From Glaucostegus cemiculus (taxonomy: Eukaryota): DNA of 64,000 nt. The notes under the pieces are model-generated. The model saw nothing but the letters and a program-made list of their open reading frames with translations. It ran no database searches and had not been told where the DNA came from. Shown here piece by piece: positions 3,996-60,578 of the stretch. The stretch is from positions 20,088,001 through 20,152,000 of the forward strand of contig CDPCPM010000037.1 of NCBI GenBank assembly GCA_976551045.1, in the 5' to 3' direction. Both the position numbers and the translations under genes were made by a program. Position 1 is the stretch's first letter, and each line of letters starts with the position of its first letter.

Positions 3996-4268
3996 CACAA
4001 TACAGGCATTCAGCCTACAGAGTCTATGACAGCTCATAACAGAGCAATCCCATCAGCCCCATTCACCCACTTCTTATTTCCCTTCTTATTTCTTTGTACC
4101 CCTGCAACATAATTCTCTCTCACATACTCAACTCCTCTGAGATTTTTGTCATTTACCTACACTAAGGGGTAATTTAGAGAGCCAATTAATCTACCAGGAA
4201 ATTGAAGCACCAGCTGCATGAGAAAACGTGCAAATGTGCAAACTCCACACAGACACCACCCAAAGTCA
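3996..4268 (-). mobile_element. tRNA-derived V-SINE (HE1-like), 5'-truncated
   Basis: Shares tgcaaactccacacagaca and ccaattaatctacc with the copies at 15366-15669 and 41715-42064. Confidence 0.7.
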
Positions 4269-7200: not shown

Positions 7201-9309
7201 CATATTGCTGGATTTGCTATCTCCGCTATGGTAAAGCCTGAGCTATATTTTATCCTTAAGCTGGAGAGGCAGATAGGCAATTTGTACTCTACTGCCAATC
7301 ATGCCTCCTGAAGGGCAAGCAGGAGCAGTGCAAATTACTCATCTGATTATTTTCCCTAGTCCCTTATGGGGAATTGCATCGGCCAAAAAACTTGAAAAGT
7401 TGTTCACGGCTTGTGAAGGATGGAACCATCCCACTGTTCTGTGACTTCATCCTAAATCTAGTGGGTAGAGTCATTTTAAATATTCAGATGGATGCCCTGT
7501 GTCTGTAACCTTTTGCCCTTTTCCAGCACAAAATATGGTGTTATGCTGAGGTTTTGGAAGGGCATGAGGACTGACTGGATCTATTGGAAAGAGCACTTCC
7601 TGCAGGAACTCCTTAACCTCTCACCCCAAGAATGCACTCCGATCCTATGGTTGCAGGGGGAATCCACTGGACATAACCTCAATGCAGATTGCAATCAATG
7701 CAGATCACATTCATAAAGCAGCTTGGAAATCGTCTGCTCCTATCACGTCTAAATTTTGTTGTTTCTTTAAAAAACTGGAACTCTGTCTAACTAAGTTCCT
7801 CCTCTGCAACATGGGAATGAAATTGGTTTATACAAGAGCTCAAAATAAGCTCAGTTTTGATACTGTGCCTAATTTCCTTATGGATTTAAATCATGATGAC
7901 AAATATAGGATTCTGAACCAATGGAAGGAAGTAAAACAGCAGATTCAGAACCTCAGTAATATAATTTAATGAATGGACTATAGATCCCTTTTTCTTCCCC
8001 CGGCAACTTTTGTATAATTAAAATAAACAGTGTGTATACTTAAAACACAGTGCTCAGAAAACAAAGCCATTGTATGTGACAGGTATCCATTAAATTTATT
8101 GCTCTCTGCTGGCTTTTGACTGTTATCCTCTGGTCTTTTCAGTACTTCTTTTACTTTGAATTCTGCTTCAAAATCTTCTCATTTATTGAAATGCACTAAT
8201 GCCAGGTTTGATCTGAGGCTCCAGGCAGATTTTGCTCATACCCCCTCATCCTTTCTTAGACTACCATGTGATTTTAAGCAAGATGTTCATACAGGCTTTT
8301 ATCAAGGTTCATCAACTTCCAGCACAATATAATGTGACAACAGTACAGCTTTAAAGCAAGCTGAATAACATTTTGCTGAGTCTGGGTGTTCTTGCTAAAG
8401 AATGGATGGTAAAGAAATCTAATCCCACTGGCCCATAGTTCTATATGTTGCTGCTTCCAACACACAGTTTCGCTATGCTGCAAAACATTTTGTTAGTACA
8501 TTGAAAATGAAAGTGTCAGAAATCTGTTCTTCCTGCAAGTTCTTTTGGAGCTAGCCACGATAATAGCAGGAATGAAGCCACAACACTTCGTCTTATATTA
8601 TCAACTAATTTCACATGACAAATCAGAGCTGATCTGTTCTGAGAAAATGCCACTAACCTTAAAGTGCAACTGCTTTTCTTTCTTCCTTAAATGCAGAGTC
8701 TTTAAAACACTTTTTTATTTCAGACTTATAGGGAAAATTTCTTGTGATTGAAGCCTCGCTTGAAAGATGCAAAAATTGGAAAACTGGGTTGGATCAGCGG
8801 ATCTTCCAAGTAATCAACCTTGACTGACATTCGGCTTCATATCAATGTGTTTAGCAATTCGGGATGCTAATAATTTTTGATGAAATCATGAGAGCTGATC
8901 TTCGACCCAGTTTGACCAAATTTGCTTCAACAACCCTCCCTCCCCCAGAAAAGAAAGAAAATACAAACCATGGTATATAGCGTGATGTGACCCTTAATTA
9001 CACTACATTAACAAAAGCAATGCCCAACGCTGTAGGCAATGAATTCCAATTTAGTCTATTTAAAAAATTCTCAACTGTTAATCTTAACCTGACCATCTGA
9101 GAAAGAATTGCTATGTCAGTTCAATGGCTTTCCATAGTTGCATTTGTATAGCCATCAAAGCTATGCAAGTACTTATCCACTCATGTTGATATTGGAACTA
9201 TACATAATGCGATTAAACATTTGAACATTATGATAAATGTGTGTTTTTTCTACCACAGGTTTCTTGGACCCAGAGACAACCTTCTGTGTGACATAATTAG
9301 TAGAGCAAC

Positions 9310-12545: not shown

Positions 12546-13904
12546 ATCAGTAATCAAACCACAAATAAGTCTTTATAGCCTCTTTTTGGTTGAATAAGCA
12601 AGCAGACGTTACTGCTTTCAAGAAGTTCTTTCACAACCATCACTGATTCATCGATAGATAAGTTTTCTCAAGCTGTAGCTTCTGTGCTCTCTTAGACTGA
12701 GCCAAAGAAACCATTTATCCTGGCCGATTTTCATATCCCTGCTGGATCACCTGCTCCATTAGTTTTCCTAATTCCTTCTTTGAGCCAGCTTCTCCATAAT
12801 CTACTTCCCTCTCTCCTTCAGTAAGTACAACATTTCTCACAATGTAAGGATGCCAACTATTGGGATAATTCTCATGTTATGTATGAAGACACTATGTAAT
12901 AACATTTCACTTTTCCTATGCTTATTACATTTGACACATTTAATCATCCCACCCAATTTGATCTTCATTGAAATCAATAGAAATTTGGAAAAGCTACTTT
13001 AATGACACTGTGCCATTCCTGCCTGATTTTCCTCTATTTCCTGCATCTAGTGAGGCAGCAAAACAGCAGATTACCAAAGCAATGCTGTGTTTGAAGTGAC
13101 CAGAAAATGCAACACAGTCAAAATCATTTTCTGCCTCTGCATCTTCTCCCTTTGGGGAGGCACTATCTACATACTGAGGTCTTTTGGAAGCTAATCACTT
13201 TTGATTTGGGAAAGTTAATCTCCAGTTTACAGAGGGCATGAAAATAATTTTTTGTTTGCCTTCGGAAATTACTAGATTACGGAAGTCAGAAAAAAGTATC
13301 AGCAAACACATGGTTTCTTTTTTTTATTTTTCAATACGTGACATTTGTTGATGGGTTTTCCCATGATATTGGGTGCTGTATTCTAGTTGATAAATAAACT
13401 ATATGCTGTCCAAGGACTCAACAAAGGGATGTCCATGGATTAGACATGATCCGAGTGGAATAAGGAACCCACTCTTTCTTAACCTGACACTTTCTTTCCA
13501 TCTTGAATGTTGCTTCTGATTTAGACAGTTTCCCTTCTACCACAGATATGTAGGACACTCAGAGATGGGGAGCAGAATGGAGGGTATGGTTTAGTTATTT
13601 GCTCTTGCTAGTCCTGCTGTACATAGAGTCCCGGGTAGATATTAGATCCTGCCAAAAATATTAATATCAAGATCAATAAAGTAATCCCAACCATTCCCCA
13701 ACTAAGACCCAGAGAGAGCTAGAGACCCTGTTCCTTTCTTGGTGTCACTCAGACTAAAGTGGATCAAAAGAAATCTCATTGATTGCTGGATCACTGTCAC
13801 CAATGCAACAGCCATGAGATTCCTCACTGCCAGTGGCATGGGAAAAGACCAGAAAGAGGGTGGCCAAAGGTTAGCCAGTTTGGTGAGCAGTAAGCTTTTC
13901 TGCC

Positions 13905-14064
13905 AGACACAAGAGACTGCACATATTGAAGTCTGGAGCAACACACAGAGTGCCGAAGGAACTCGGGATGTCCAGATGAAGGGTCTCGACCCAAAATATA
14001 GACTGTCCATTTCCCTCCACAGATGCTGCCTGATGCAGAGTTCTTCAGTGCTCTGTGTGTAGCT
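13905..14064. mobile_element. Short Penelope-type terminal-repeat element with imperfect inverted arms and a decayed hammerhead motif (+ strand, 13968-14005)
   Basis: Arms gcaacacacagagtgccgaaggaactc (13938-13964) and gagttcttcagtgctctgtgtgtagct (14038-14064) are imperfect inverted repeats; core gtc-CAGATGA-agggtctcgaccc-AAA-atat-a-gactg. Confidence 0.65.
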
Positions 14065-15365
14065 TCTCTGCTAGTCTAGCTGGCTTCTGAGTTGGAAAGA
14101 AGTAACTGTCATTGCAGGGTTGAATATCTGTCATGGAAATAAAGCAACTGCCATTCAAGGCATTTCAATCAAACAGTAAATATGTCAGCTTTTGACACTG
14201 ACATCAGAAAATGTCCTGCAAGGTTTGGAAGCTGGCATTCAACCAGGTCTCCACTCGTCGCCAGAGACTGCTATACCACTTTGAACATAAATAACAGTGA
14301 GTACCATTTGCTGCAATTGCTGACAGCAAGATTTAGCTCAATTGGTTTAAAAGAATACACAAAACAATGAAACCTATGTGAGTGGAGTTACATTATTATT
14401 AAATTGAAAAGGTTCTCTAACATCACTTTGATAATCCAGCAATATCAAGCTTTCAAATGCAAAATTTAATGCAACAAACAGTATAAAAATATTCAATTTA
14501 CTGCCTGAAAGTGGTTCCATTAGACCTATCTCAATCCTTATAATTTCACAATATAATAACCTTGCTTCTCAGGATGATTAGTTAAGTTATTAGCTTTACC
14601 ATCGGTATTGCAATGCATTTTAGCATTAATTACATAATGATCCTAACAATAGCTAACATATTATACTCCTATTATTCCTGGTTTCAAACTACCCTTGTAA
14701 AAGCCTAAAGAAGCTTAATGACTGAATCATCAACCAGATAAAAGGAACAGTGTTACAGCTCATTTATGACTAGCTAGAAGTATAGCTTCAAAACTATGAG
14801 AACAAAGAATTCACACAATCAAAGAGCCAGAAAGTTACATGATAAAGTTCCCCTCTAATTAAAAATGTATGGGTTTGTCTGATTTATTGTTTTTAATTAT
14901 CAAGAAAATCGTATTCTCAAGAACTGTAAAATTTAAAACTTTGGTGCAAATTTGTGTTTTGTAGTATACACTGGATACATAAAGTTCAGAAGTTCACTTC
15001 TGAAATTTAGTTCCATTGAAATCAATGAAAGCAATTTCAAAAGTGAAATTCAATGCACATGCCATATCACCAAAAGAATTTCTGCATGTTTTAATTTTCA
15101 ATTCATTTTCAGGATGTATATTGCTGGTACAGTTGTTGTTTATTTTCTGAGCATTGCCACTCTGAGAAAATTATGGTGAGCTGACTTATTGATTCACTGG
15201 CTGTCTGTTAGTATTGACTGTAAGACAGTTGCACGTCAACTACATTGGGACGACACGCGAATCAGATACTTTCCAGTAGGTACAGCAGATCTCTTTTCCT
15301 TAAGTACATCAATAAACTTTTCTTATGTATCCAAACACCTTTATGATCATTTTCCATATTTCTGT

Positions 15366-16639: not shown

Positions 16640-16703
16640 TGACCTGCTTTTCTCCATGATGCTGCCTGCCCTGCTGAGCTCCTCCAGCATCATGATGTTT
16701 TTC
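16640..16703 (+). repeat. Fragment of the Penelope-type short repeat
   Basis: gatgctgcctgccctgctgagctcctccagca is the reverse complement of the arm at 48789-48820. Confidence 0.6.
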
Positions 16704-20015: not shown

Positions 20016-22614
20016 ATTTAAGTAAAAGCTCATCCACCTCCTCTGACAACATCTCCACTGTTGATCTCCTCTACCATCAATACCCTGCACATCACCATTC
20101 CACAGAGGAGACACAAGAGATTCTGTAGATGCTAGAATCTGGAGCAACACACATTTTGTGTGTGATCACCATTCAATGCTTTGTTTACCAGCCATATCCA
20201 CACATCTGCTACAGAAGTAGAATGGAGAGATGAGTGTGGAGTTCTTCAACAGCAGGAAGGCCATGTTGCCAGTGATGCTACATGTATGAAACATATGGTC
20301 ACACATGGTAGAACATGCTTTGCATGCATAAACACACATAAATGCCTTTCTCTCACTAACACCACAAAGGTTTTACTGGAACAGAAGTGATAATTAAGTT
20401 TAAGACAACAGGTCAACTTTCACTGTTCCAAGATTAATGTTGCCCTATTACTTCTACTTAGTTATCTAGTAAAACCTTTGGTTCACTTTAAGGAATGTCA
20501 AGACATATTAGCTGGTATACAACTGTGACACACAATATGTTTAATACATATTTCACCCTTGAAAGTGTGATATGTTTTGTGGCGCATAAGAACTTCTAGG
20601 AATGGACAGAGCTCCAATGCGAGGCACCCCTCTATTCTGAGATGGTCAACTTCCGTGCCTGCAGCTAGAACCTATACTGACCTCCCACCATCCTTCTGGA
20701 CTCACCACCAAGTCTAGTGAAAGTTCTGGATTGGATTTGAGAAGCTAAATGTAAAAAAAGCAGCAATCCCGTTCATTTGAATGGTGTTACTGACTTTTGT
20801 TAAAAAGGCAGGAAGAATCTGCAGAGACCTCCTGTAGAATGGATCATGAAATGTTAACATATATCCCATTCATTCTAATATCATACTTTTAGAATTTTAT
20901 TTAATATATAAAAACCAATGCAAGCAATTATTTCCTACTGGCCACAGACATGCAACAGATGGATTTCTCTAAGCACTTCATTTACCCTCTGAGTGAAAAC
21001 TTTTAACTATTACTCATAGAGACTACACTGTGTTCTGAAATGAACAAGTTAGGTTAAACAGAAATCCATTTAAATAGTAGATGGCTTCTTTTCCATTAAC
21101 CCCACTACATCTGATTTGACAGAACATACACTACAGTTACTATATAATAAATTGTGCAAATGTATGCATGACTTCATTGTCCTATTATCATAAAATAACA
21201 TATTCACTTATTTACTAAGTAATAGTAGGAAACTGCTATTGGATTAGAAGGAACTCGCCACCTCTACATCCTTTCAAGCAACACTGTGCATATGGTCTGT
21301 GAACTATTACTGTTAGGAATTGTTCAGCCTACACTACTTAAGCAAGGTAATCTGCATCACATCTGCCGACAATCCACTCCGCAATAGTAATGAATGTGTT
21401 TATTTGGCATTGTTAAACCTCTGCACAAGAGTCCAAATCAGTTAGAGAAATCTAGGGTAATTTCACTTTACAAAAGTAGTAGTAAATCTTTGGGGAAAGA
21501 GGTGCATTTGCTTCTACAGAATAACCACCTGTACAACAATATTATTAGCTACTTTAAATCACAGGTGTCATTGCAGGCAACGAAATACAAATGAAGAAAG
21601 GTTTTATTTATATGTCTTCCAATTTGATTATTCCCTGATCTTATCTACAAATTCCAATGGGAGAGAGTAAAAGAATATCTTTGAATCCTAACAGTGCACA
21701 GCTAAGTTCCATGTCGTTGTTTTTGGTTACTGAAGGTTCAGTATTCTGATTTTCTCATGGACTGTTTTGCTCAACTACTTGCTACACAGCAGAATAATAA
21801 GATTTAAGCAGAGCTGCCCCACTGACGTCAAATCCCTGTCACAGTACCAATGGATGAAATTGCTGCAGATCTAATACACAGCATTTGAACTCCTTAACTG
21901 ACAATGAACCCATGAACTTGTGTATATGTTAATTACGGTACATCTGCTGAGCCCCAGTAATTAAAGATTAAAGGAAAAGACCTTTGCAGCAAATACGAAG
22001 AGAGCTTACTCAGCTTGAGTGTGCTAACGATCGGCCCTTTTAATTAACTGCGGGAAGATTAAATACATTTTTTAGTTAAATATGTCTATCTTCTACAGTT
22101 TTTATTTTCATACATGCTCTTTAATTTATGTAATCTGGTTCTTCAGATTTCTGTCTCTTCCCCCACTTACAAGCATGCACAAAATGCAGCCATTATCTAG
22201 CCAAAAGCAATGGGAACTGATCTGCCTCTAGATCTCAGCTAATCTCAGCATTAATCTGCTCACCAGGAGAATGGGCAGACATTGACCTTCCCTCTGGGGG
22301 ATCTGGTTAAACCCTACTTTGTGTCTCCTTTCCAACATAGTGACAGGGTTAATGAAGGGTTTTGAAACCAGTAACTAATTCACCATTTAAGATGGTACCT
22401 GGGAGAGCTCAGAAATATAAACTGAATTCACAATGCAAATATCATATTTGTAAGAAGCAGCTTATAGAGTAAAACCAGCACATTGTCCACTGCTTTTGAA
22501 AATAAGTGGCTGAATACAATACATTAACCATACTATATAATCTCATGCTTATGAATGTGGATGAATTATTTGTAGAGGTACTACTGAAAAGTGATGAGAA
22601 ATGCATCAGTCAAC

Positions 22615-25379: not shown

Positions 25380-25490
25380 ACAAAAGCAAAATAGTCTAGA
25401 TGTTGGAAATCAGAAATAATAACAGAAAAGGCTAGAAATACTCCACATGAGAGAAACAGAGTTAATGGTCTATATTGGAGAATTTCATTA
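25380..25490 (-). repeat. Decayed Penelope-type short repeat
   Basis: aaaagcaaaatagtctagatgttggaaatcagaaataataacagaaaaggctagaaatactc resembles 53443-53500 and 42790-42830. Confidence 0.5.
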
Positions 25491-25551
25491 TAATGGAGTA
25501 TAAATGGGGTAACACAATAGCCTTCAACCATAAGAATGTGGACCTATCATT

Positions 25552-26188
25552 GTTAAGAAGGCTTATGGGATGTTAGCTTTTATAAATCGAGGGATTGAGT
25601 TCAAGAGCAGAGAGGCGATGATGCTGCTTTACAAAACTCTAGTTAGGCTGCACTTAGAATATTGTGTTCAGTTCTGGTCGCCGCATTATAGGAAGGATGT
25701 GGAGGAGTTGGAGAGGGTACAGAGGCGATTTACCAGGATGATGCCTGGATTAAAGGGTATGGAATATGAGGAGAGGCTTAAGGTGCTAGGGCTCTACTCG
25801 TTGGAGAGGAGGAGGATGAGAGGGGCCTTGATAGAGGTGTATAAGATATTGAGAGGAATAGATAGAGTTGACAGCCAGCGCCTCTTTCCCAGAGCACAGA
25901 TGCTCAAGACGAGAGGGCATAGCTTTAAGATATTGGGTGGAAAGTTCAGGGGAGATGTCAGAGGGAAATTTTTCACCCAGAGAGTGGTTGGCGCATGGAA
26001 TGCGCTGCCTGGGGTGGTGGTAGAGGCAGATACATTGGACAGGTCCAAGAGATCGTTAGATAGGCACATGGAGGAATGTGGAATCGAGGGATATGTGGGA
26101 GGAAAGAGTTAGATCATGTGACATTTGAAGGACGGCACAACTTGGTGGGCCGAAGGGCCTGTTTTGTGCTGTATTGTTCTATGGTTCT
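25552..26188 (+). mobile_element. Young 5'-truncated CR1 LINE (ORF2 C-terminus, ORF 25570-26112, plus 3' UTR)
   Basis: 180-aa uninterrupted frame (LYKTLVRLHLEYCVQFWSP...RGHSFK...FFTQRVVGAWNALP); ends in gttctatggttct; about 95% identical and ungapped against 38632-39268. Confidence 0.95.
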
Positions 26189-26945
26189 AAATCAAAGTTG
26201 CAATAACAGCAATGGCTGGGGAGGTTGATTAGGTACCTTGAAGATAGGTGGGTTGGGTTGAATGATTAAAGTATTAGGGTCCAGGAATTGGGGGTGGTGA
26301 CAGTAAACTGGGGGTTGGGAAGGGTATGGTGGTCTTGAGGTAATTGGACTGGCAGTTCACGATCAGGGGAAGCTGTGATTTACAGTAAGGTGCCTAAAGA
26401 AGCAAGGTTAGTGAGCTAGGGAAAATTAGTTCAGAGCTGGGTACAAATGAGTAAAAGGAGCTATCTTACATGGAGCTTCTTCAAAAGAAACACTGCTGTA
26501 CCAAGTGCACTGATCACATGATTTTTCTTCAAGGGTGAAATATGACTAGTAGCATTCAATCAAATTTCTGCTGCAAAATTAAATGCAAAGAAAAAAAAAT
26601 TGCAGCTGCCATACTGAATTCTGTAGTAATGAAGAAAACAAGATCCAGTACCTAGACCAATAAACTGGGAAATGCTACATTAGCTATAAGATGCAAAGAA
26701 AAGGAAGGAGAGCAGTGCACAAAAGGCAAGGTCTCTGATGAGATGGAAAGGCAGAAGAAATTAAATTACAAAAAGGAATGAGAGTACAATTCCAGATATT
26801 AAATTCAAGTATTGCTCAATGCACAGACAATACTTCCAAACTGAATTTGAAAAATTCAGTTATATATATTTAATATAATTCCACCATTTTATTTTACATA
26901 AATGCAGAAAAATGAAACTAATCCAGCTTTAGCATTTTAACTCTA

Positions 26946-33984: not shown

Positions 33985-34090
33985 TCAAAGCAAAAATTGA
34001 AAAGGCAAGGAATACTCAGCAGATCAGGAAGAATCCATAGGAAATTAAAAGACCTGTATTCAGTTATAGAACCTTCCACAGATTGGAAAT
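33985..34090 (-). repeat. Decayed Penelope-type short repeat
   Basis: ggaatactcagcagatcaggaagaatccatagg resembles the family arm (actcagcaggtcaggcagcatc). Confidence 0.45.
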
Positions 34091-37000: not shown

Positions 37001-38003
37001 TGAAAAAAACATACAAGACAATGATTAAAATTTCAACTACAGAAACTGAGGTGCGTTTCATTAGAGGAAGATAATTTAAAGGAGACCTTGGAGATTACAA
37101 GAGATTATGAAAGAGTAGAAGAGATAGATTCTTTTTAATGGATGACAGGACAACAATGAAAGAATTAAATTTTTAGACATTCACAAGACAGTTAAAGTGG
37201 ATTTAAGAAAATATGTCAAGGTACAGCACGATTAGAAAGTATAATTATTTACTATAAATTGTTGTTGAAGCGGAGTCCACAAATTTTAATTTAGAATTCA
37301 ATATTTGCTTTAAAATGTAAAATATTACAATTTTAGGAACCAATAAGAGTGAAATAAACCAGGTTCTTTATTTGGGAAAACTAATCAACTAATGTGATTG
37401 TCTATAATTTATCATAAGAATGGATGAAACCTTCATAAAGCTATTTATTCCAATCAGACATTATGTAGAATAAGAATCAATTGGCATGATAACTTGTCAA
37501 CAGGACCACAACTAGAATTAAAAATGCATGTTAAATACATTAAGAGATACAATTACGTAAAGTGAAATTCCACTTTTTAAAGAGTTTCTAGTTCCTAAGT
37601 GGTTATAGTTTATTCAGGTGGATTCCCCAATCTCTGTTGTACCAAACAAAACTGCCACTTATGACACAAGGCCCTGGAATACTTCCCAGTTTATGGTTAT
37701 TTCACAACTATCAAGATTTTGCATGGATCTCTGGCTGTTATACTCGATTTAACCAGTTACATGTGCTACATAGTTATTCAGTCATACGAGTGCATTCAGT
37801 TAAAATGCAACCACAAAATGTGAAAAAAAATAGATTTCATATGCTTTATCTTCATTCAGAAGGTGGACTATCAAAATCTTCTTGATAATATATTCCAACT
37901 TTAATCACATCTTTTATATACAATTAATTTACAAATCAGTTTAGGTATGCAAGTGCAAAGAAATTATTTAAATATTATATTTTCATGAGAGATCCTGCAG
38001 AAC

Positions 38004-39276
38004 TTTGTGAAGGGAAGATCTTGCCTCACGAGCCTGATAGAATTCTTTGAGGAGGTGACGAGGAAGCTTGATGAGGGCAGTGCGGTGGATGTAGTCTATA
38101 TGGATTTTAGTAAGGCGTTCGATAAGGTTCCTCATGGCAGGCTTCTTCAGAAGGTCAGAGGTCAAGGCATCCAGGGGAGGTTGGCTGTGTGGATCAGGAA
38201 TTGGCTTTCCTGTAGAAAGCAGAGGGTTGTGGTGGAGGGAGTGCCCTCGGATTGGAGGGCTGTGACTAGTGGTGTCCCGCAGGGATCGGTTCTGGGGCCT
38301 CTACTCTTTGTTATATTTATAGATGACTTAAATGAAGGAGTGGAAGGATGGGTTGGGTAAGTTTGCAGATGACACCAAGATCGGTGGTGTGGTAGATAGT
38401 GTGGAGGACTGTAGGAGCTTACAGAGGGATATTGATAGGATGCAGAGCTGGGCGGACAGGTGGCAGATGGAGTTTAATCCGGACAAGTGTGAAGTGGTGC
38501 ACTTTGGGAGGAAGAACTCCAGGGCAGAGTATGAGGTAAATGGCAAGGTACTTGGCAGTGTAGAGGAGCTGAGGGATCTGGGGGTTCATATCCACAGTTC
38601 ACTCAAAGTTGCCTCGCAGGTGGATAGGGCAGTTAAGAAGGCTTATGGGATGTTAGCTTTTATAAATCGAGGGATTGAGTTCAAGAGCAGAGAGGCGATG
38701 ATGCTGCTTTACAAAACTCTAGTTAGGCCGCACTTAGAATATTGTATTCAGTTCTGGTCGCCGCATTATAGGAAGGATGTGGAGGAGTTGGAGAGGGTAC
38801 AGAGGCGATTTACCAGGATGATGCCTGGATTAAAGGGTATGGAATATGAGGAGAGGCTTAAGGTGCTAGGGCTCTACTCGTTGGAGAGGAGGAGGATGAG
38901 AGGGGACTTGATAGAGGTGTATAAGATATTGAGAGGAATAGATAGAGTTGACAGCCAGCGCCTCTTTCCCAGAGCGCAGATGCACAAGACGAGAGGGCAT
39001 GGCTATAAGATATTGGGTGGAAAGTTTAGGGGAGATGTCAGAGGGAAGCTTTTCACCCAGAGAGTGGTTGGTGCATGGAATGCGCTGCCTGGGGTGGTAG
39101 TAGAGGCAGATATGATGGACAGGTTCAAGAGATTGTTAGATAGGCACATGGAAGAATGTGGAATAGTAGGATATGTGGGAGGAAAGAGTTAGGTTGTGAG
39201 ATGTTTGAAGGATGGTACAACTTGGTGGGCCGAAGGGCCTATTTTGTGCTGTATTGTTCTATGGTTCTATGGTTCT
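38004..39276 (+). mobile_element. Young 5'-truncated CR1 LINE carrying most of the RT domain, with a single +1 frameshift
   Basis: [46 protein letters not shown]; ORFs 38007-38360 and 38332-39192 join if one G is removed from ttggg near 38355; (GTTCTATG)n tail; candidate TSD AGAAC at 37999-38003 and 39277-39281. Confidence 0.97.
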
Positions 39277-42480: not shown

Positions 42481-42789
42481 TTTCATATTGCTTTATGGTA
42501 TGGAAATGTCCAAAGGGGTATTATTTGATAGGCTGAGTGTCAAACATATTTACAAACACACACAGCAGCCAATGATAATGAAGGAAAAGTTCTAAATTCA
42601 TGGCAACAATTACAGAGCCTTAGACATTATTTTAGGGAGACCAGCAGTTATAAGTAGCGATATAACTGCCCCAAAGTTTTATACCACTGGCTCTTTCTGA
42701 CCAATACCAACATTATCTGCAATATAAGCCAAGACATCGCCCACAGGTGTATTAAGTACATCATCCATATATTAATCTATAAACGCCAA

Positions 42790-42860
42790 TAAAAGCAGAA
42801 ACTGCTAGAAATGCTCAGCAGGACAAGCAGCATTTGTGGAGAGGAATGTGGACAGAAATG
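42790..42860 (-). repeat. Penelope-type short repeat fragment
   Basis: gcagaaactgctagaaatgctcagcaggacaagcagcatttgtggagag matches the family arm. Confidence 0.55.
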
Positions 42861-47610: not shown

Positions 47611-47972
47611 CATAATCAAAGACCCCACCCACCCAGGACATTCTCTCTTCTTCCATCGGGGAGAAGATACAGGAGCATGAAGGAACACGACACCAGACTT
47701 AAGGACAGCTTCTACCCCACTGTGATAAGACTTTATACAATGAGATGGACTATGACCTCATGATCTACCTTGTTGTGACCTTGCACCTTATTGAACTGCA
47801 CTTTCTCTGTAGCTGTGACACTTTACTCTGTACTGTTAATGTTTTTACCCGTACTACATCAATGCACTCTGTATTCACTCACTGTAACTGCATTGTGTAA
47901 TGAATTGGCCTGTATGATCGGTTTGTAAGACAAGTTTTTCACTGTACAAGTGACAATAGTCAACCGATACCA
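47611..47972 (+). mobile_element. Rex1/Babar-type LINE 3' end
   Basis: IIKDPTHPGHSLF..PSGRRYRS...TTRLKDSFYP matches the Rex1 ORF C-terminus (compare 60220-60340), followed by a 3' UTR ending gtgacaatagtcaaccgatacc. Confidence 0.85.
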
Positions 47973-48565: not shown

Positions 48566-48747
48566 ATAGTGCAGGACAATGGTGTACTCATATGCCCCTC
48601 CTCATGTTGCCCACTGTTATAAGACTACTGAATGATCCCCTAGTACAATTAGATGGGCTCTTGACCTCACAATCTAACACGTTACGGTCTTGCACATTAT
48701 CATCTGCCTGCATGGCACTTCCTCTATAACTGTGACACTTTATTCTG

Positions 48748-48888
48748 TGACATAAAGAAAATTCTGCAGATGCTGGAATACACAAAAAGTGCTGGAGGAT
48801 CTCACCAGGTCAGGTAGCATCCATGGAGGGAAGAAAACCAAAAAAAAAAGTTGACTTTTCAGGTCGAGACTCTTCATCAGGACTGGAA
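48748..48888 (-). mobile_element. Penelope-type short element inserted with a candidate 6-bp TSD (ATTCTG)
   Basis: ATTCTG at 48742-48747 and 48889-48894; the host UTR reads through when the insert is removed. Confidence 0.7.
48850..48886 (-). ncRNA. Minimal type-I hammerhead ribozyme motif (best-preserved copy, probably impaired)
   Basis: Minus strand CCAGUC-CUGAUGA-AGAGUCUCGACCU-GAA-AAGU-C-AAC: both catalytic boxes (CUGAUGA, GAAA) and a GUC triplet are present; helices I-III carry substitutions. Confidence 0.55.
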
Positions 48889-51800
48889 ATTCTGCATTCT
48901 GTTATTGCTTTCCCTTGTACTACCTCAAAACACTGTTGTAGCGAAATGATCTGTATGGATGGCATGTAAAACAAAGTTTTTCACTGTACCTCAGTGCATG
49001 TGACAATAATAAACCAATTTACCAATTTAATATTCTCCTTGTACCAAAATATTTTTTTGCCTCATAAGCCGCAAATGGTTCAAACATTACATTTTGCCCT
49101 CTCCTCAATATGACCAAACTCATGTGCTTTTCTCACTGTGACCAAACCTACCATCATTACCTTGCTCTTGCTGCTGAGCAATAGGCAGAGGCTATGATCT
49201 GATTATCATGAAGAATAACATGCTCCGTGGAGCATACTGCACCATACCTTTGTATTCCATGAAGAGCTCCAGGTTCTTATATAGAATCTGGAGTGCCACA
49301 TGGCTGCCTGAAGCATCATGACAACAATAATCTGAGCCAACTCACATATCCATTCTTACTAACTCGGAAAGGAGATACATTTCTTTGCTCTACGAGCAGA
49401 AAGCAACCATGATCTCCTGTAAGCAGTTACGAGCTGCAAACTACAATATGTGGCACTCATCAGCTGTCAATGCCAAGAATGAAACCCAGGATAACAATGA
49501 CAATGATCTTGTACAGAGCTGTACAAGAACCGGTAGGTGGCTGGAGCTCAACCTGCAGATGGCAACAGATTTCTGTCACCCTTGATGTAGAATATCTTGG
49601 CACAGGAATGCATTAATCAGTAGACAGGCGTTTTGCTCCCAAAATCTCTTGGCAAACAGACTATCATGGTTTTTGTTCCTTCCTCCCTTCTCTTCAGCCT
49701 TGGATTTTGGTAGCTTGGTGTATCCACTATTAATACTCTCATAATCCAACTTTAAAAGGTAGCCTTAATCTCAGGATTTAGAAAGCATTGCTTCAAGGCA
49801 ATAGCCTTCAGGCATCTTAACTATGAACTTGTACAAATGACTGCCCAATAAATGTGCAAGTAATTGAAGGTCCCTTTAAATAATTCAACTTCAAACCTGC
49901 TTTCCTTGTGTTGCTCAAATCAAAATTCTATCTGCATATACGTGGATCAATTTTTTTTTTTACAGAGGAAGCATCAGTGGGGACATTCCAGGAAAATTAA
50001 CATCATCCCTGAGTGCATTGTGTGCTTGGACATGTGAATATTAAGTTCACAGATAGTCCTATTGAATGTCTGATTATATACCATGCACGCTATAAAGTCT
50101 TGACCATGCTTAGTGATCGATTTTTATGCTGCAATAAAATCAAGTAGAGCATAAAAAAAATTATGTGTTAAGTGACTGTATTTCCAGGCCATTAGGTCAG
50201 AATGAATGGATTGAAAACTTATTTAACAAAATCAGAGTTTGGAATTCAAATCACACCAAATGAACTACTAACAAAATAAGTAAAATAGAGAAATACTGTA
50301 TATACATGCAAATAATTCAAACTTCTAAACTGATTCAAATGTTTAACTTCTGCCCACCTGAAGATGAAAGCAATTGAATCTGTTTTGCAGTATCATTCTC
50401 AGAGAAAGCCTTGTGTGTTAAGCCTGAAGTCAGTTTCAAATCCCTTGTGGAATCTTAATAATTTAGTAAATTAAGTCCATTCTTAAAAATTGGATTCAGC
50501 AACATAACTATCCAAAGGACATTCAAACAGAATTCTGTGGCCAAGACAAAATGTTTATTTATTCTATGACCCATGATTCTGCTGCTATTTTAACATATAT
50601 TCTTTACCAGGAACATTGTTTTGTTTTATATATATAATGCAGAAAGGCACATACACACGTAAAAAGCCTGTTTTTTCCATTAGTAACAGACTTCTTCCTT
50701 GGCTTACATAACAGGAAATAGTGGGCAACTACCTATTATTTCCTAACCATTTTAATGCATGGAAAACAGTGAACAATGTACCAATAATTTCTTGCAATGT
50801 GCAGGCCATTTACTGACCATTTACTAATATCACCATCTTCACAAAGAAAGAACAAAGTCTTAATGTCTCATTGTACTATTAGGAAAAAAATGAACAATTC
50901 TCAGGCCAATATAGTATGTCTTGATCTTTCTCATAGTTGACCCTTAAAGCTGCAGCATATTGTGACTCAAAACAGCCATGTGGTGTTACTATCTTCAGTG
51001 TGTTAAAGGCTGGGCATCATTCCAGAGTTAGTTTCTCACTGTGATAGGACATGCAGTTAAGATGTTAGCGTGGCTTTGTTCTTTGACCTCAGAAGCAAAA
51101 GCATTCAATTTGGAGTACAATCAGGACATTACACTGTACATGCTACTCGCCAAATTGTCATCAGCAGTTCTCACTGATCTAATTGCGCATAAACATTTGG
51201 CATTCTCTTTGCTTAGCTGTGGTACAAGAAAGGAAGGTAAAGGGTCTGCAAACAATTGTGAAATCAATAGCAATTGGGTGGAGTTTGTGTTGAATGCATC
51301 TCGAACAAAGAGCAAACTAGATGTTTACAAATAAAACAGTAGACAAAACCTCAGCCCCTTCTTGCTGTTCAATATGTCCACGCACAGCTTGGAATACTAA
51401 TCAAGTGATTCATTTACTAAATATAACTTGCAGTTTTTAACAACATCTTATTCAAGGGAATTTTATTAACTTGATATAAAAGGGAAATATATGCCATAAA
51501 GACAAATATATAATGCTTTTCAAATTAGATTCATAAATTACTGTAAAGAAATCAGGTTACTACCCATTTAACTGGGTAGGAGCTCCAATCAAGTAGTATC
51601 CAAAGAATCCAAAGATTTTTTTTTAATGAAGGTATCAAATGCCTGCTGTTAATATTCATAGGGTTTAACTTCAAAGCGATTGTGTTCAAGACTAAATGCA
51701 GCTCCCATGGAAAATAATAATGTTGGAAACAAAAACTTAAGCTTAGAAGGTTTTTCCTAAGAAGCAGTCAAAATCATCCAAGTAAGAAATGCAGCAGTTG

Positions 51801-53089
51801 CATGGGTCTGGTCACATAACATATGGCATTAGCAGTGACTTAAATGTGTCATTATGGTTTTTTTTACTTTAGATGGAAATCTTTGAAATTTTACGGCAGA
51901 TGAATATGGCACACAAATAAAAATTAAACTTACCTCAGATAACATCCCCCATAAAAATAATTAACAGCGAAGCTTTGATACAATAAATCTCAAATTATCA
52001 TAAGCTGGAAATATGTATGTAAAGTAAAATGCATTCAAGCAACCAAATACTATATTAATGTTTCAGATCAGGGATGAATTTCTAGGCAACATTATGTTCA
52101 TTGCTCATTAAATTCAAAAATTCTTTGAAGTGACAGAATAAGATCACTAATTTTACTGAAAGAAAAGCTAAGGTAACATATGGCCCTGCATTTGATAAAC
52201 AAGGTAATAAACCACACAATAAGTGCTACATCTTAGCTCCATTTTGTAAATTGCCATCAGTCCATGCCTGCTTTTTAATGAAAGTGTTACAAACTAAATA
52301 ATTGCTGTGTTGCAACTCATGCTAAAAGACACAGCGGGCATCCGGTATAATTGAAAGTTATGTCACAGACATTTAACACTTCCAATCCAATGAAACATGT
52401 TATTAGAAAGGTAGCAAGTATGCTATCAACAGTTTGGATAAAGGAATCAGTCGGATAAAGGAATCGACAAAATAGTGAGACCACACAAAAAACATATTTA
52501 ATTTTATGTGACTCAAACTTGTATATTTTGGGATTCACAATCAGAGTTATACCTTACTACAATCATCTACCAGTCAGCTCTGTATTCAACACCCTACTCT
52601 TCAGTTGATCATCTATGGATCAAATTATAATTGATGAGTAATTAACATGTTTAACAGTTAGTAGAGAAAAAGGAATGGGGGAAAGAACTATTGGATTTGA
52701 GGGTTCACTCTGTTTTCTCCAAACTTGCTACATGACACCCATGCACTTTGGTAAACCCAAATGTTACAATGACTTGTTTTCAGCAGCTGTTAACTCCTAC
52801 AAGTTTTAATATTGATTTTTCCCTTGTCTTCATTTATACACAATTAAATGCATGTATTTGGAGTGCTGACATCCTTTGCTTGGGTGTTACGGATGCCATA
52901 TGAGAAACAGAATGACACTGATGGCACAGTGGGACTTTTGCAGCAAGTGATGTCTGATGCCACTATGGGGAGAACGTTAGCACTCACTTATACTAAGCTT
53001 TGAATGGGGGGATAAAAAGGCTGCTCATGATTTTTTTTGATTCAATAAAAGTGCTACCATTCTGCCAAAATTGCCAAATTCTTCTTCTA

Positions 53090-53360
53090 CCTCAGGATCA
53101 AGGATGACTCAGGATTTATGGGGTTTGTAGGTGGCTGAGACCAGTTTTGAAACTGCAGACTCTCCACAGATGGGGTGGGACATGGCTGACAGGCAGACTG
53201 GTGGGGAGTTTGCACTCTTCTGCTGCTTAGACAGGTCTTCTAAGTTTTCCCTGTGCATGACAATGCTGAATGCTCCTTCTATACTTTGAACAGTCAGAGG
53301 CCAGAGTTTCCCAGCAATAGTCCTCTTTTAACCCAATGTAGGTGAAACTCAGCAGCAGGG
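53090..53360 (-). mobile_element. RTE LINE 3' end relic
   Basis: ctcaggatcaaggatgact...gaaactgcagactctccacagatggg parallels 11525-11625. Confidence 0.6.
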
Positions 53361-53442
53361 AAGACCCACCTATGCAGAAAACATTCCCTAACACTAGCAC
53401 AATTAAAAGCATCAAACACTTAAAGGTTTGCTGATAGTTATC

Positions 53443-53660
53443 AAAAAGCAAAACACTATAGGTGCCAGAAATCTGAAATAAAAATCCTAGAAATATTCAG
53501 CAGTTAGTTTTCAGTCGATGAAGTTTCATGAGGAATAGGAAACGTTAGAAAACAACCATGTTTAAAGCTGGAGAGAAGGGGTGGCTGGAGAGATCAAAAG
53601 GAATGGCTGTGGTAGGCCAGATCAAGAGGGAATGAGTGACAAAGGGAGTATTGATGCCAG
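53443..53660 (-). repeat. Older Penelope-type repeat with purine-rich extension
   Basis: aaaagcaaaacactataggtgccagaaatctgaaataaaa...gaaatattcagcag arm followed by a GA-rich tract. Confidence 0.5.
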
Positions 53661-53799
53661 CTGAGAGAGGGCAGTGAAGGATTGCTAAATGCACCTGATG
53701 TGACTGGGAGGAGGATGATCACTTCTGGCTACGTTTCAAGTGCTTGATCCATTCTTGAGTCGCAGAAGTCTGTAGGGAGCAGCATGATATGAGCTGAAG

Positions 53800-54140
53800 G
53801 AGACATAAGAAACTGCAGATGCTGGAATCAGAAGCATTAAACAAATCTGTTGGAGGAATTCAGCAGGTCAAGCAGCATCAGTGGGGGGGGGGGGGAGGGA
53901 ATGGTCAACGTTTTGGGTTGAAACCCTGCATCAGGACTAAAAGTAGAGAGGGGGAGCAGTGAGACAAGGGACAGAGGTGATTGGTTAACCAAAGGGTAGT
54001 GAAGGATGATGGGCCAATTGAGCCTGGTAGGGGAGTGGAGAGAGGCGGAGTTGAAAGGCAGGTGGATGATAGATGGAGGCAGACAAAGAAAACAGAGACG
54101 GGGAGGAGAGGGGGAAAATGGAGACAGCTGGGTGGGTGTT
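53800..54140 (-). mobile_element. Penelope-type terminal repeat with a decayed hammerhead (53902-53939) and pyrimidine-rich upstream tract
   Basis: Arm aactgcagatgctggaatc...tggaggaattcagcaggtcaagcagcatc; minus-strand core UAGUC-CUGAUGC-AGGGUUUCAACCC-AAA-ACGU-U-GACCA. Confidence 0.7.
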
Positions 54141-55841
54141 AAGTAGGAACACAATGGCACCAGTGCTGGAATCTGATGAGTGAGGCGATGTCCTATGTGT
54201 TGAAGGATATTGGTTTGCTTCAGGATTCCACACAAATCAGATGCATCCAGTTGTGAGTACATTAGAAGACATTCCCGTTTCAATATAGCATGACAGTGAA
54301 AATAAGCAAAGGGCATGCAAGTAAGGCAAGCCTTGAAAGAGGAAAGATAATGAGGATGAGAGGGATTCATAGGAGGGGCCTGATTCTGTCAGGATACTGA
54401 GGGATCAATTCTCCTTTCTGAACATCCGTGATCAGTGTGTGATACATCTGTTCTCCTAAGAATGTTGCCATTGAAAGTACTCAACTACTTCAGTTGCACT
54501 GACAATTTCAGAGAAGTAAAAGGAGTGTATTGCCCATGACTTTCAAGGTGACCATGTCATGAACATAAGAAACAGAAGTAGTAGCCCATATAGATTCGCT
54601 ACCATTCAATAAGCATGTACGTATCCAAGTATCACCTCCATTTTCTTGCCTGTTCTTCCCAACACACAATTCCCAAGATGACTAAGGCAATTTCATGTCA
54701 ATTTCATGTCAATTTCCTTCCAAGCTGTAGATGAGTATATTTGAAACATTTTAGCGTTTGCTGACAGCCTACATTAGGGAGATCACTGAACTCTTCATTC
54801 AAAGGGAGCCAACTACATATCTTGTCAGAGACTGGCAGATGGAGAAACATATGGCTTTGTTAAGATTGCAAGGTTTCCTATGAACCAGTGAGCTGCGATT
54901 TGAAGCATATTGTCGCACAGGCCTACAGTTCAAGTCCATACCAGAACTGAAAGCGATTCTGCTCCCTCAGTGCTGTTTATAGGCAGAAAAACATGTAGGT
55001 GGATATCCAGCATCTTGGCTGCAGTCCATTTGTCATTGTTCCAGCTGTCTTTTCAACCTATGGATGAAAGAATGGTGGCCATTAGGCAACAGGGTCTGTT
55101 CCCCAGAATTGTGGCTCAAAACTGCAACCCAAACCGTGTGGGTGACATACAATGAAAGGCACGTAACTTGGTGAGCCTCTGGCATTCTGAAACAATGCAT
55201 CAGCTACCTTATCACTCTGGATGAGCCTTGTAGTTCTCAGAAGAGTGGATGTTAAGATTCATGGTAGTCCTTTGGCAGCTTGCATGCTGCATTTTACTTT
55301 CCTCGTGTCACTGACCTTCATAAGTTCTGCTTGATATCAATGCGAAAAGTTACCACAAAGTAAATACTTAAGTCCAAATTTATGAATTAGATGGCCTTCT
55401 GTGCACCATTACCTTCCCTAATTCTCCAAGGCAATGCTATCCAAACAGTACTGATGGAAGATAGCTGCTTTTCACTGCAGAGACTCCAGCTGACCTTGGA
55501 GGATACTCCTGCACAGTGAACATTGTTATTTTTCTGGCTGGTTCCAAAAGCATCAGGCATTTTGTGCTCCATACCTGTCAGAACATTTCTACTTCCATAC
55601 TGTCAAGTCATCATCTGAGCCTGCTGCAGTAGAACTTGTGTACAATCTTATTCTCTAGCCAGCCGGCAATTGTACTACCTTTTCCTCTTGCCTGGCTGTA
55701 CCTCAGCACAAGCAGATCTTGCCTCTTTGTTTTCCTTAAAATTAAAGTTTCCAAGCTGATGAATGCCAGTGTGAAATCAACTGATGGTGTGTCTTCATCT
55801 CTGTGTTTCTCACTGACAACATCATCTCCCCAAAGGAGATG

Positions 55842-56563: not shown

Positions 56564-59394
56564 GATGACATAGATATACCAAGCTTTCTCCAGACAGCTT
56601 TGGTTGTGTGCCATAACTCACACATCAGAGTAAGCCACATAGTTGTGAATTTCTGTGTGACTGATGTTTCTGTACTCCTTGGAATACTCACAGTTTGAGA
56701 GATGTGGGCACAAGGCTTGCAGCAATGCTGGTGCTAGGAATGTAAAGAAATTAGTCCTGATTGACAGAGATTAGCAGATTAAACAAAATCTGAAGCAATG
56801 CATATAATGCTTGGATATGCTTTGAAGATGCTCAAATATTGAAATCATTGAAAATAAGGCCACTGAACTTTTAACAGTTCTGCATTCAGGCCCTTGGGAC
56901 TGGCTCCTGGTCCTGAGTTCCATGGCTAACTGGATCCTCTGCTTTTCAGCATGCACCTGCAGCTCCTCCAAGCCCCCTGCAGATAAAATCTTTTATTTTC
57001 CTTTCTGTTTCCTCCCCTATGCCAGTCCATCAGCCACAAGCCTTGCTCTATCCCATGTTGTATAATTTTTGTCTCATTTTCCAGGTCAATCTCAATCGTA
57101 AAGTGCCTCCCAATACTTCCCCTTTAAGAGATGACAATTGCCTTTAAGCAATTCAGGTTAGCCTACCAACTATAGTAGGCACCTGCTGAAATGTCCAACT
57201 AATTAATGGCATGGTCAGCATCAGCTTGACCTTCCAATCATTATAATTCGCAGTTAACATGGCGCTGGTGTGCTGATTGCACTACATTGTATAGACGTGG
57301 CTTTACAGGGCACTGTGGCCTTTATTTTGAGGACTAAAGTATTATATTCTATCACATTTAAGCCATTATTTCCAAAATCTTCAATTCAAATTATTAAATG
57401 TCAAATCACTTCTCTCCCGAGGTTACAGTTCAAGTCTACAGTGCTACTCTTTAACACCAGAGAACCTTAATCCAGGAAAAACACAAACTAAATTCTGTAT
57501 TTCAGTAGAACCTTTGGTGCTTTGCTACATGAAAAATCTTCTCAAGAATTCCAGTTTTCTTTGTTGCCACTGGAGAAAGAATCATTTTGACACATAAATC
57601 CTCTTTTACAATCACTCCCCAGATAGTATTTGTGAAGAATGTATGAGCCATTGAAATATTACACTCACAACCTTGAAAATAACAAATAGACTTTTTGTGC
57701 TATTTGGCAGCCCTTCCTAAATTTCTTGTTTTAAATTATACAGTAGTGTATGTTCCCTACTTTACTGAAGGATAATAGCAACAAAATCTATCTTTACAGA
57801 AATTGTCTTTTTCAATTTGGTCCTTAAACATTTTTCCCATAGTGTTTAGTTTCTGCAATTTATTTAAAGGGTCTTGCTTCAAGGTTAAAACCCCACGTCA
57901 CTAATCCAGAAGATTGGACATTGTAACATTAATATAATCTTTTTATGTGCACCATGCTGACATTACTTAATCATTTTTCTTTAAAAGAATTTTCCAACCA
58001 AATTGCACAACGTAGCAGTCCATTTTTATTTTGTTCCCTTTCCTCATGACTTTCACCTTGTAATTAGGCTTAAAACTCTAATTACGTGGGTCTGATTTAT
58101 AACTTAATGGGTTATAACTGCTTCCAGCACTTAGCATTTTTATCTTAACCTGCCTAGCCTATTTCTCATTCTTTTGCATATTTATCCTGAGTCGTAATGC
58201 ACCGAGAATAGAGGGACAACATATTCAGGGGAAAACTATTTTTAGTCTTTGCCTAGGATACTACATCAGTAACAGCTGGATTCATTTTATGAATATTCTA
58301 TGGGCCCTATGGCTTTTATTACTATTAATTTGGTAATTACTTTTGACAGTGAAGTTGAACAGCCTGGATCACAAGCAACTTTTCAAAATCAATATCATGT
58401 AAGGCAAGATTAAAAGGAAATACCATTTTGATTATGTAAATAAATGTTCACAATACAGAAAATACAGTTTTATTCATAACAAAAAAATCAATTAAAGCAA
58501 TTATTAAAAAAAGTCCAAAAATATTATTTCAATCTTAAATGTGGGACCTTTTAATTTGCCTGTGAATTAATTTACAATTACCCTGAGATTCTTGAGAAAA
58601 TGGAGGATTCCCAAAGAGGTTCACAGCATCTTCATTTTTTACATCTACATCAATTCTTTTAATCAAATAGCTTTTTTTTGCCTCAGTGTTTTCCAGTGTC
58701 AAGATGAATAGCCTCCTGGTCTTAAGAGTGGAATTCAGCAAAAACATACAAAAGCAAAGTGCCCTCTGGCAATAACATATTCAGCTATAACATGTCTTGA
58801 TGGTGAAACATGAGCAAGAAATAGGAAGTCGGTCTGCCTTATCCCAAGATTATGTTGAAGTGAACCCACCAACATTCTCCTGCTCCTCCTTTTAAATTTA
58901 CATAAAGATTGCAAGATCTGCTCCATTACCATACAATTCAAGTAGGCTCATAGATCTTGTAACCTCTTTTACAATATACTGATCTTCCTATCCATTTCTG
59001 ACACAATGCAATCTGTTCTTTGACAGGGGTCTTCCATTAGACCTTCATTCCTCCACATCTGCTAGAAGCACACCACAGCATCTTGAAGCTTTTAGTCTTC
59101 AGCTCAAATAATGAAAGCAATGACAGTGAATCACTCTCCTACATGCATTGAAATAACAATCATGAAGAATTTCATACTTAAAGAGCCAAGTTACTTAACT
59201 CCTTTTTGTAAATCAAATGATTGGCAAATTTTGCACTGACAGGAGATTAACAGCCTATTGTGTGTGTGTGTATAATATATATATATATATTAATGTATAT
59301 TAGTCAGACAAACAGCTGCTTAGAGTTTAATGTCATTCAATACATGGGGTCTATTCATGAATGCACATATTCCTCCTCCACTTACTGTACATCA

Positions 59395-60578
59395 CCCATG
59401 CTCTGGACCACAGGAACACGTATGTTAGGCTGTTGTTCATGGACTACAGATCAGCATTCAGCACCATCATCCTCTCAAAATTTATCATCCATTCCCACGA
59501 CCTGGGCCTCCATACCTCCCTCTGCAATCGGATCCTTGACTTCTTCACTTGGGAGACCACAATCAGTATGGATCAGAAACCTCATCTCGTCCTCACTGAG
59601 CATCAACACAGGCATACCACAGGGCTCTGTGCTTAGCCCCCTGCTCTACACCTATGATTGTGTGGCTAAGCTTAGCTCCAAAGCCATTTACAAATTTGCC
59701 AGTGACAGCACTGTTGTTGGCAGAATCATGGATGGCGATGAGGAGGCGTACAAGAGTCAGATAGGTCAGCTAGTTCAGTGGCGTCATAACAGCAACCTCA
59801 TGCTCAACTTCAGCAAAACCAAGGAACCAAATATGGACTTTCAGAGAGGAAGTCAAGTAACTACACATGAATCCTCATTAAAGGCTCTGCGGTGGAAAGG
59901 TGAGAAGCTTCAAGTTCCTGGATGACAATATCTCGGAAGATATATCCTGGGCCCTGCACATAGACGCAACCATAAAGAAGGTGTGCCAACATCTCCACTT
60001 GTTTAGAAGTTTAAGGAGATTCAGTATGTTATTGAAGACTCTGACAAACTTCAACAGATACACAGTGGAAAGCATTCTGATTGGTTGCATCACGGCTTAG
60101 TGTGGAAATAGCAATGTACAGGAACGCAAGAGGCTACTGAGAGTGGTGGACTCAGCCAGTTCCAGCATGGGTACAGCTTTCCCCACCATCAAGGACATCT
60201 ACAAGAGGAGATGTCACCATCATTAAGGACCCCCGCCATCTGGGCTATGCTCTCTTCTTGATGCTGCCATCAGGCAGGAGGTACAGGAGCCTGAAAACCC
60301 ACACCTCTAGGTTCAACAACAGCTTCTTCCCCCACTATCATCAGATCCTTGAACCAATCTGAAAAACCCAAACACTACCTCAGACTATATTTCTGTTTAC
60401 TTCCTCTCAACTTGTACTAATGTCATTATGTTTATTTTGTCATCTATGTATAACTTATGTTAATTTAAGTTTGTTTACTTACACTTGTAATGTACTGTGT
60501 TGCTGCTGCAAAAAATTAATTTTCATGGCATTTATACCCTACATATGTATGCTTATGACATTAAACTTGAACTTGACT
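59395..60578 (+). mobile_element. 5'-truncated Rex1/Babar-type LINE, frameshifted RT through the 3' tail
   Basis: NTYVRLLFMDYRSAFSTII...LCNRILDF, NTGIPQGSVLSPLLY, KFASDSTVVGRI, SFKFL..NISEDISW, VESILIGCITA; tail tgacattaaacttgaacttga. Confidence 0.92.

Follow-up and report, generated by a model that had tools for sequence, protein, structure and literature searches.

The 64,000-nt stretch analyzed here (the window; positions 20,088,001 to 20,152,000 of the forward strand of contig CDPCPM010000037.1, Glaucostegus cemiculus assembly GCA_976551045.1) contains three copies of a minimal hammerhead ribozyme motif, at 48848-48885 and 53902-53939 on the minus strand and at 13968-14005 on the plus strand. 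All three copies, which were reported in an original prediction made from the letters of the window, are real, and they represent three different subfamilies. Each lies in a short repeat unit. We conclude with high confidence that these repeats are 5'-truncated insertions of the terminal repeat (i.e., the pseudo-long terminal repeat [pLTR] plus a tail) of an abundant Penelope-like element (PLE), a retrotransposon with reverse transcriptase (RT) and GIY-YIG endonuclease domains that is likely of the Neptune type and that carries a minimal type I hammerhead, likely inactive in the window copies.

The 48.9-kb copy is a 141-bp stub of pLTR and tail (48748-48888; minus strand) that starts 8 nt upstream of ribozyme position C3 and finishes at the longer of the two 3' ends of the family. 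Its motif keeps the core letters CUGAUGA, GAAA, and UC. The palindrome ACGU has become AAGU, helix I has lost C2.1-G1.1 plus one further pair, and helix II has an A-C mismatch; the motif folds at -4.9 kcal/mol (z, 0.03) and does not take up the consensus fold. The stub is nested in the 3' tail of another abundant repeat (48640-48747 and 48889-49030). It is flanked by a 6-bp duplication, ATTCTG (48742-48747 and 48889-48894; plus strand), which is genuine because 17 other copies of the host repeat lack the insert, 10 of them having ATTCTG exactly once at the insertion point. A piece related to the host repeat is also present at 47736-47831.

The 53.8-kb copy (53802-54193; minus strand) belongs to a subfamily with the core CUGAUGC. 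Its motif, which carries the subfamily-wide change A9C together with G12A (at a CpG), lies where it had been predicted, but the copy is really ~390 bp long, 5' truncated, and composed of a pyrimidine-rich 3' untranslated region (UTR), the ribozyme, and the long tail. It shows 67% identity to another locus of the subfamily (L304) back to ~54080, and we infer its outer boundary from a 14-bp duplication with two mismatches (53788-53801 and 54194-54207); among 80 control windows, an equal match was found only in the one that contained this duplication itself. The third copy is an inverted (head-to-head) unit (13907-14060; plus strand), with a long arm on the minus strand (13908-13972) and the ribozyme and a short arm on the plus strand (13970-14063). 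This unit is also flanked by a 14-bp duplication with two mismatches (13893-13906 and 14061-14074), and its motif carries the subfamily-wide change U4A plus G12A and has lost the palindrome.

Every window motif has damage to its helices or core, and none folds better than shuffled sequences; as judged from their letters, all three are likely inactive, as the original prediction had expected. A scan of the window with Rfam returned no hammerhead family at an E value of ≤5. Regarding the lesions, which had been described as falling mostly at CpG sites, the description suits the G12A of the 53.9-kb copy, but two of the copies carry the subfamily-wide changes CAGAUGA and CUGAUGC, which are not CpG decay. 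Across genomic copies, 30 to 40% of CpG sites are changed. The helix II variant GGGUU/AACCC, once taken as a sign of preserved pairing, is not independent covariation because, at this CpG site, 12 of the first 30 loci of the subfamily have GACCC and 18 have AACCC.

Throughout the genome, the majority motif comprises a 5-bp helix I, CUGAUGA, an extra A, the pair G10.1-C11.1, GAAA, the palindromic ACGU, and a GUC or GUU cleavage site. The type I order of CUGANGA and GAAA-(N)-UH is the majority form in the main subfamilies; the exceptions are the CAGAUGA and CUGAUGC subfamilies and, among the window copies, two of three. ACGU is the majority sequence in all nine clusters, many copies of which were picked by a pattern containing ACGU, and is gone in two window copies. 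When folded, a natural copy with an intact motif forms helices I and II (-12.4 kcal/mol; z, -1.67, which is not significant alone). Co-folding of two intact motif copies was also tried and gave a duplex unlike the catalytic dimer; this result is uninformative because the program ignores core contacts. The layout fits that of a Penelope-type minimal type I hammerhead, as had been proposed.

The family is abundant. In the 2.85-Gb genome, a 33-nt consensus had 194 exact matches (versus 0 for the reversed pattern), in line with the high copy number originally predicted. The core pattern CTGATGA-N13-GAAACGT, with a 13-nt spacer, had 3707 matches (versus 18 for the control) and its version with a 14-nt spacer had 1009 (versus 15), while a 32-nt piece of the downstream tail had 8287. 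Forty 10-kb stretches taken at arbitrary round positions (400 kb) contained 77 end fragments, most of them short, versus none in reversed controls. The resulting density of ~1 fragment per 5 kb, which counts both arms of inverted units as well as older subfamilies, extrapolates to approximately half a million fragments in the genome. Contigs from four sequencing runs, of four organisms, held thousands of related pieces; such contigs are silent on ends, strand, and cleavage. A single dead stub with a fixed helix I mismatch has been re-amplified within a larger duplicated block on several contigs (L001-L005, L151, L154, L211-L217, and most of L224-L234), and the exact-match counts are therefore inflated.

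To relate the motif to its surroundings, we used 160 loci selected by the motif, of which 27 sharing >250 nt of downstream flank (i.e., duplicated blocks) were removed; 26 of the remaining 133 belonged to an older family and were set aside, leaving 107. Upstream of the exact-motif loci lies a pyrimidine-rich stretch of ~350 to 430 nt, followed by GIY-YIG and RT remnants, and an endonuclease remnant was present on the same strand within 1.5 kb in 21 of the 107 main-family loci. We also collected 30 loci by a 91-amino-acid (aa) piece of RT only (150 scored of 12,707 candidates). The ribozyme-bearing end was located 1.1 to 1.5 kb downstream on the same strand in 22 of these (21 of 29 without the query's own locus), so that the adjacent RT and GIY-YIG sequences that the original prediction had proposed to look for are indeed there.

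One locus (L062) has a 523-aa open frame with RT (RVT_1) followed by GIY-YIG (Pfam E values, 0.0026 and 0.051). Its protein has 274 homologues, many of them 800 to 900 aa long and annotated with RVT_1 and GIY-YIG, and the closest named homologues are from rays (~60 to 70% identity). Pfam searches with short fragments of locus L012 gave nothing useful, and NCBIfam and PDB sequence searches gave no match. A tblastn search of the L062 protein against the window returned no match either, and the window therefore contains no coding part of the element. At locus L070, the endonuclease is preceded by C-X4-C-xx-C. A CX2-5CxxC linker is a mark of the Neptune and Nematis clades (PMC8557442), and on this sequence the element is likely Neptune type.

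The tail also belongs to the start of the open reading frame (ORF). Locus L073 spans ~3.5 kb and has the tail at both ends. Among 29 loci chosen by the ORF N terminus, 19 have the tail directly upstream, and 7 also have the 3' UTR before the ribozyme, i.e., they are partial tandems. At locus L317, 157 aa are open from the ATG in the tail, and the tail codes for the first ~28 residues. The unit (~3.5 kb) runs in the order ribozyme, tail, N-terminal domain, RT, Cys linker, GIY-YIG, pyrimidine-rich 3' UTR, ribozyme, and tail. Given the RT/GIY-YIG linkage and the position of the tail at the ORF start, we identify the repeat as the pLTR and tail of a PLE, with the tail encoding the beginning of the ORF. 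The separate non-autonomous family first proposed finds no support in these data, in which the same end lies downstream of RT/GIY-YIG remnants and continues into the ORF N terminus in long copies.

Seventeen of the 29 loci chosen by the ORF N terminus (within L313-L340; e.g., L314, L318, L320, and L333) jump after 255 to 860 nt to a second same-strand 3' end. The resulting units are short, have two terminal repeats and junctions that vary, and may stem from template switches. They come closest to a two-ribozyme short unit; their lengths may be biased by the 300-nt query. Three ray gene models named as kinase-domain, chitinase-domain, and nicotinamide riboside kinase isoforms (P0002, P0003, and P0112) contain the element ORF, which likely reflects annotation spill-over or exonised copies.

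The insertions themselves have a characteristic anatomy. The 3' ends of the 107 main-family copies, measured from C3, are bimodal: 40 lie at +88 to +104, 46 at +120 to +144, 3 in between, and 18 are shorter, which defines two end sites ~35 nt apart (about +98 or +133). An inverted arm is present upstream in 39 of these copies. Of 38 independent inverted pairs, 34 consist of one long and one short arm (Fisher's P = 1e-6), and solo copies are long in 29 of 68 cases. In the inverted units, one long and one short end are enclosed by a single duplication of 10 to 16 bp. Duplications scoring ≥10 flanked 18 of the 35 inverted copies, 5 of the 25 short copies, and 4 of the 39 long copies versus 1 of 396 shuffled pairs. 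The 5' boundaries and inversion junctions differ between copies. No pileup of 5' ends was found at the cleavage site (+28), a candidate that was rejected on the basis of 26 independent copies selected by the tail (30 minus one second arm and three duplicates), 5 of which have their start upstream of it, at +17 to +25.

Several observations weigh against the retrotransposon origin, the ribozyme, or the clade as given here. Covariation of the helices is thin: subfamilies differ by a single compensatory pair, and a helix I mismatch is fixed in three clusters. Eight of the 30 RT loci lack a downstream end inside the 1.5-kb flank. Both Pfam matches of the L062 protein are under the curated cutoffs, and there was no intact full-length ORF among the 150 scored of 12,707 RT candidates, the longest being 654 aa with one stop. 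The Neptune assignment, which is likely, uses the linker motif, which Nematis shares. In a first test, divergence was lower in the core than in the tail (P = 0.002), and this significance was gone once inclusion was made independent of the core. Finally, 5' ends pile up near the ribozyme edge, which a short, SINE-like (short interspersed nuclear element-like) derivative would also produce.

As for variation in the helices, the compensatory change, from C2.1-G1.1 to U-A, is present in 20 of 34 copies of the older family, and a wobble change from U-A to U-G is present in 32 of 52 copies of one cluster. Position 7, which is free in the core, varies in six of seven copies of another cluster. A CUGAAGA subfamily (a cluster of seven, including L117, L130, L143, and L165) is changed at the sole free core position, which abolishes the in-core ATG.

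The 5' pileup is the main reason to consider a separate non-autonomous short element (SINE-like or a retrozyme monomer) that derives from the pLTR, has its own transcription, is moved in trans by PLE protein, and accounts for part of the short copies. Forty-one of 106 motif-selected copies start ≤14 nt from C3, compared with 12 in the next 45 nt (7 in the first 15 and 5 in the following 30), although selection by the motif conceals starts lying further downstream. Most fragments in the 400-kb sample are short, short copies carry target duplications, and pLTR-derived retrozymes have been reported in vertebrates, including one chondrichthyan (bioRxiv 10.64898/2026.07.22.740005). However, the 5' starts are scattered over ~15 nt, copies selected by the tail start anywhere from +49 to -690, and long copies with endonuclease remnants occur in every main subfamily tested. 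A second same-strand ribozyme was found within 1 kb in only 16 of the 133 loci, and two more (i.e., three same-strand motifs within 1 kb of the center) in only 1; the tandem copies that the original prediction had suggested looking for did not form an array at any of these loci, and Tandem Repeats Finder detected no array of the repeat in the window. The same preprint defines non-LTR retrozymes as tandem repeats in which every unit carries a ribozyme. The repeat shares with those of animals a type I hammerhead, a pLTR origin, and dispersed monomers, but for lack of such arrays in the sampled loci and the window it falls outside that definition. We therefore regard an independent short element as unlikely. 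The most satisfactory explanation of the short units is that they are truncation products of the long element, and the 5' pileup may reflect either frequent stops of reverse transcription at the ribozyme edge or the 5' end of the RNA. What the original prediction drew from the 141-bp stub and its duplication holds in part: short units do insert with target duplications, as the empty sites demonstrate, but on our reading as truncated products and not as units of their own.

Selective retention of the motifs at these sites, as regulatory ribozymes of the host, is most improbable: the core letters of the 48.9-kb copy and the lower core divergence of the first core-versus-tail comparison would suit this explanation, but all three window copies are damaged as described above, none of the 20 ribozyme-spanning copies in the 400-kb sample is fully intact, and the unbiased comparison was not significant. 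In that comparison, which used 57 copies anchored by UTR and tail, core divergence was 4.8% and tail divergence was 6.6% (P = 0.13), and the core plus ACGU was kept in 5 copies. Selection on the core was thus rejected; the early significance came from inclusion that required alignment into the core, and conservation was just as high at the free position 7.

Two of the three window copies belong to lineages with a variant core, and these lineages bear on whether PLE insertion requires RNA cleavage. For CAGAUGA (U4A), we found 350 exact 27-nt matches versus 481 for the canonical sequence and 101 for C and G combined at that place. In copies not selected by the motif, U4A is tied to a diagnostic downstream CC (9 of 15 versus 2 of 60; P = 2e-6), and it is present in 6 of the 20 ribozyme-spanning copies of the 400-kb sample. 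The ends and target duplications of the U4A copies are normal, and extension into endonuclease remnants was seen at 3 of 29 loci. For CUGAUGC (A9C), a degenerate pattern had 698 matches, mostly with a tail of their own, and L304 connects this subfamily to RT and endonuclease remnants. Changing U4 or A9 would be expected to block hammerhead cleavage. If so, the core-variant lineages transposed without a working ribozyme, in agreement with the in vitro result on an anole element presented below. A literature search on measured effects of U4 or A9 changes found nothing direct; both positions sit in the conserved CUGAnGA box (PMC10085705).

The spread of these altered-core sublineages hints that self-cutting may be dispensable for jumping. 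We tentatively propose, on a sequence basis, that the U4A and A9C Penelope sublineages, whose core changes were fixed and which reached thousands of sites (normal ends and duplications having been observed for U4A), are a natural knockout in which catalysis was dispensable for transposition in vivo. The template would be uncleaved RNA, with its 5' end or the main RT stop at the first ribozyme helix, and inverted insertions would use a near and a far start site on opposite target strands. Both the spread of the fixed core variants and the 5' starts near the ribozyme core fit copying from uncleaved RNA. Alternative explanations for the spread are residual or protein-assisted ribozyme activity, mobilization in trans, and, for A9C, a shifted register using the extra A.

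The anole PLE PAc (a Poseidon element of Anolis carolinensis; Frangieh et al. 2024, PMC11167929) offers a model for how such insertions may arise. In that report, the PAc tail is bounded by two RT start sites, cutting and extension take place on both target strands, and mutants of the ribozyme are still able to insert: the mutations do not block insertion in vitro, and no RNA ends were seen at the cleavage site. The ribozyme at the pLTR-ORF junction has its likeness in the present element, and so, probably, do the two RT start sites that define the tail. In contrast, PAc belongs to another clade and was assayed biochemically, whereas the element described here is known from sequence, and the PAc ORF begins at stem II, whereas the frame that continues into the ORF here begins ~24 nt after the cleavage site. 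By analogy, the element protein would cut both target strands, and reverse transcription of uncleaved RNA would be primed at two tail sites, one per strand, with most cDNAs ending early, many of them at the ribozyme 5' edge. In the parent transcript, as the literature suggests, pairing of two intact motifs via ACGU may lead to cleavage after GUC or GUU that is either weak or assisted by protein. This cleavage step is likely dispensable for insertion.

The rest of the window contains further traces of the family. The six additional arm fragments of the original prediction were all recovered by profile scans, for which reversed-window controls gave no matches with one profile set and a single weak match (E value, 0.44) with another. 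A tail-only stub (20101-20164; minus strand; profile match, 20109-20153) has a 10-bp duplication, ATCACCATTC, on both sides. A tail fragment without ribozyme is located at 16651-16694 (plus strand), and a decayed tail fragment is located at 42788-42848 (minus strand). Three decayed minus-strand fragments each belong to an older subfamily, namely, tail fragments at 25385-25464 (E value, 7.7e-8) and 53447-53505 (E value, 0.002), the latter with ribozyme-like remains just upstream as judged by eye, and a fragment at 33988-34089 (profile match, 33988-34038). The window also contains two remnants of long interspersed nuclear element (LINE) RT at 25534-26189 and 37989-39269, which are 95% identical over 638 bp, have open frames of 192 and 286 aa, and are read as a young LINE family; from their translation, we take them to be of the CR1/L2 type. 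A further RT-like remnant with a 224-aa frame (59251-59925) is presumably of the non-LTR type.

Both the ribozyme and the type of element have been described before (PMC4209133, PMC3846280, and PMC8557442). Like the minimal hammerheads of metazoan PLEs (Cervera and De la Pena 2014, PMC4209133), the motif has a type I layout with the boxes CUGANGA and GAAA, one extra nucleotide separating A9 from G10.1, the pair G10.1-C11.1, and a palindromic 15.2-16.2, and the genome contains several consensus families, mostly as single dispersed motifs with some opposite-strand pairs. Unlike in those hammerheads, helix II is 4 to 5 bp long. A schistosome example showed no cleavage as a monomer and low cleavage as a dimer (PMC4209133). 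[quoted passage not shown] Rotifer Penelope elements share this layout: their pLTR occurs inverted and includes the first codons, and a tail of 31 bp is present at one end (PMC3846280). Duplications are longer here (up to 10 to 16 bp versus 8 to 10 bp in the rotifer examples), and the tail asymmetry is quantified here (34 of 38).

The main contribution of the present analysis is a cartilaginous-fish family of very high abundance. With decayed fragments included, its density is above the 4,000 to 9,000 motifs of coelacanth and Xenopus (PMC4209133), a report in which no shark or ray is named in the examined parts of the text and two of the supplementary files. We found no dedicated report on PLE hammerheads of sharks or rays in a search outside Repbase, Dfam, and subscription journals, and the supplements of the bioRxiv preprint may list the family. 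The role of the hammerhead in PLEs has been called unclear (PMC8557442). The altered-core lineages, together with the strict pairing of long and short arms, would provide evidence at the genome level as to the way in which Penelope elements prime their insertion and as to whether they need to cut their RNA.

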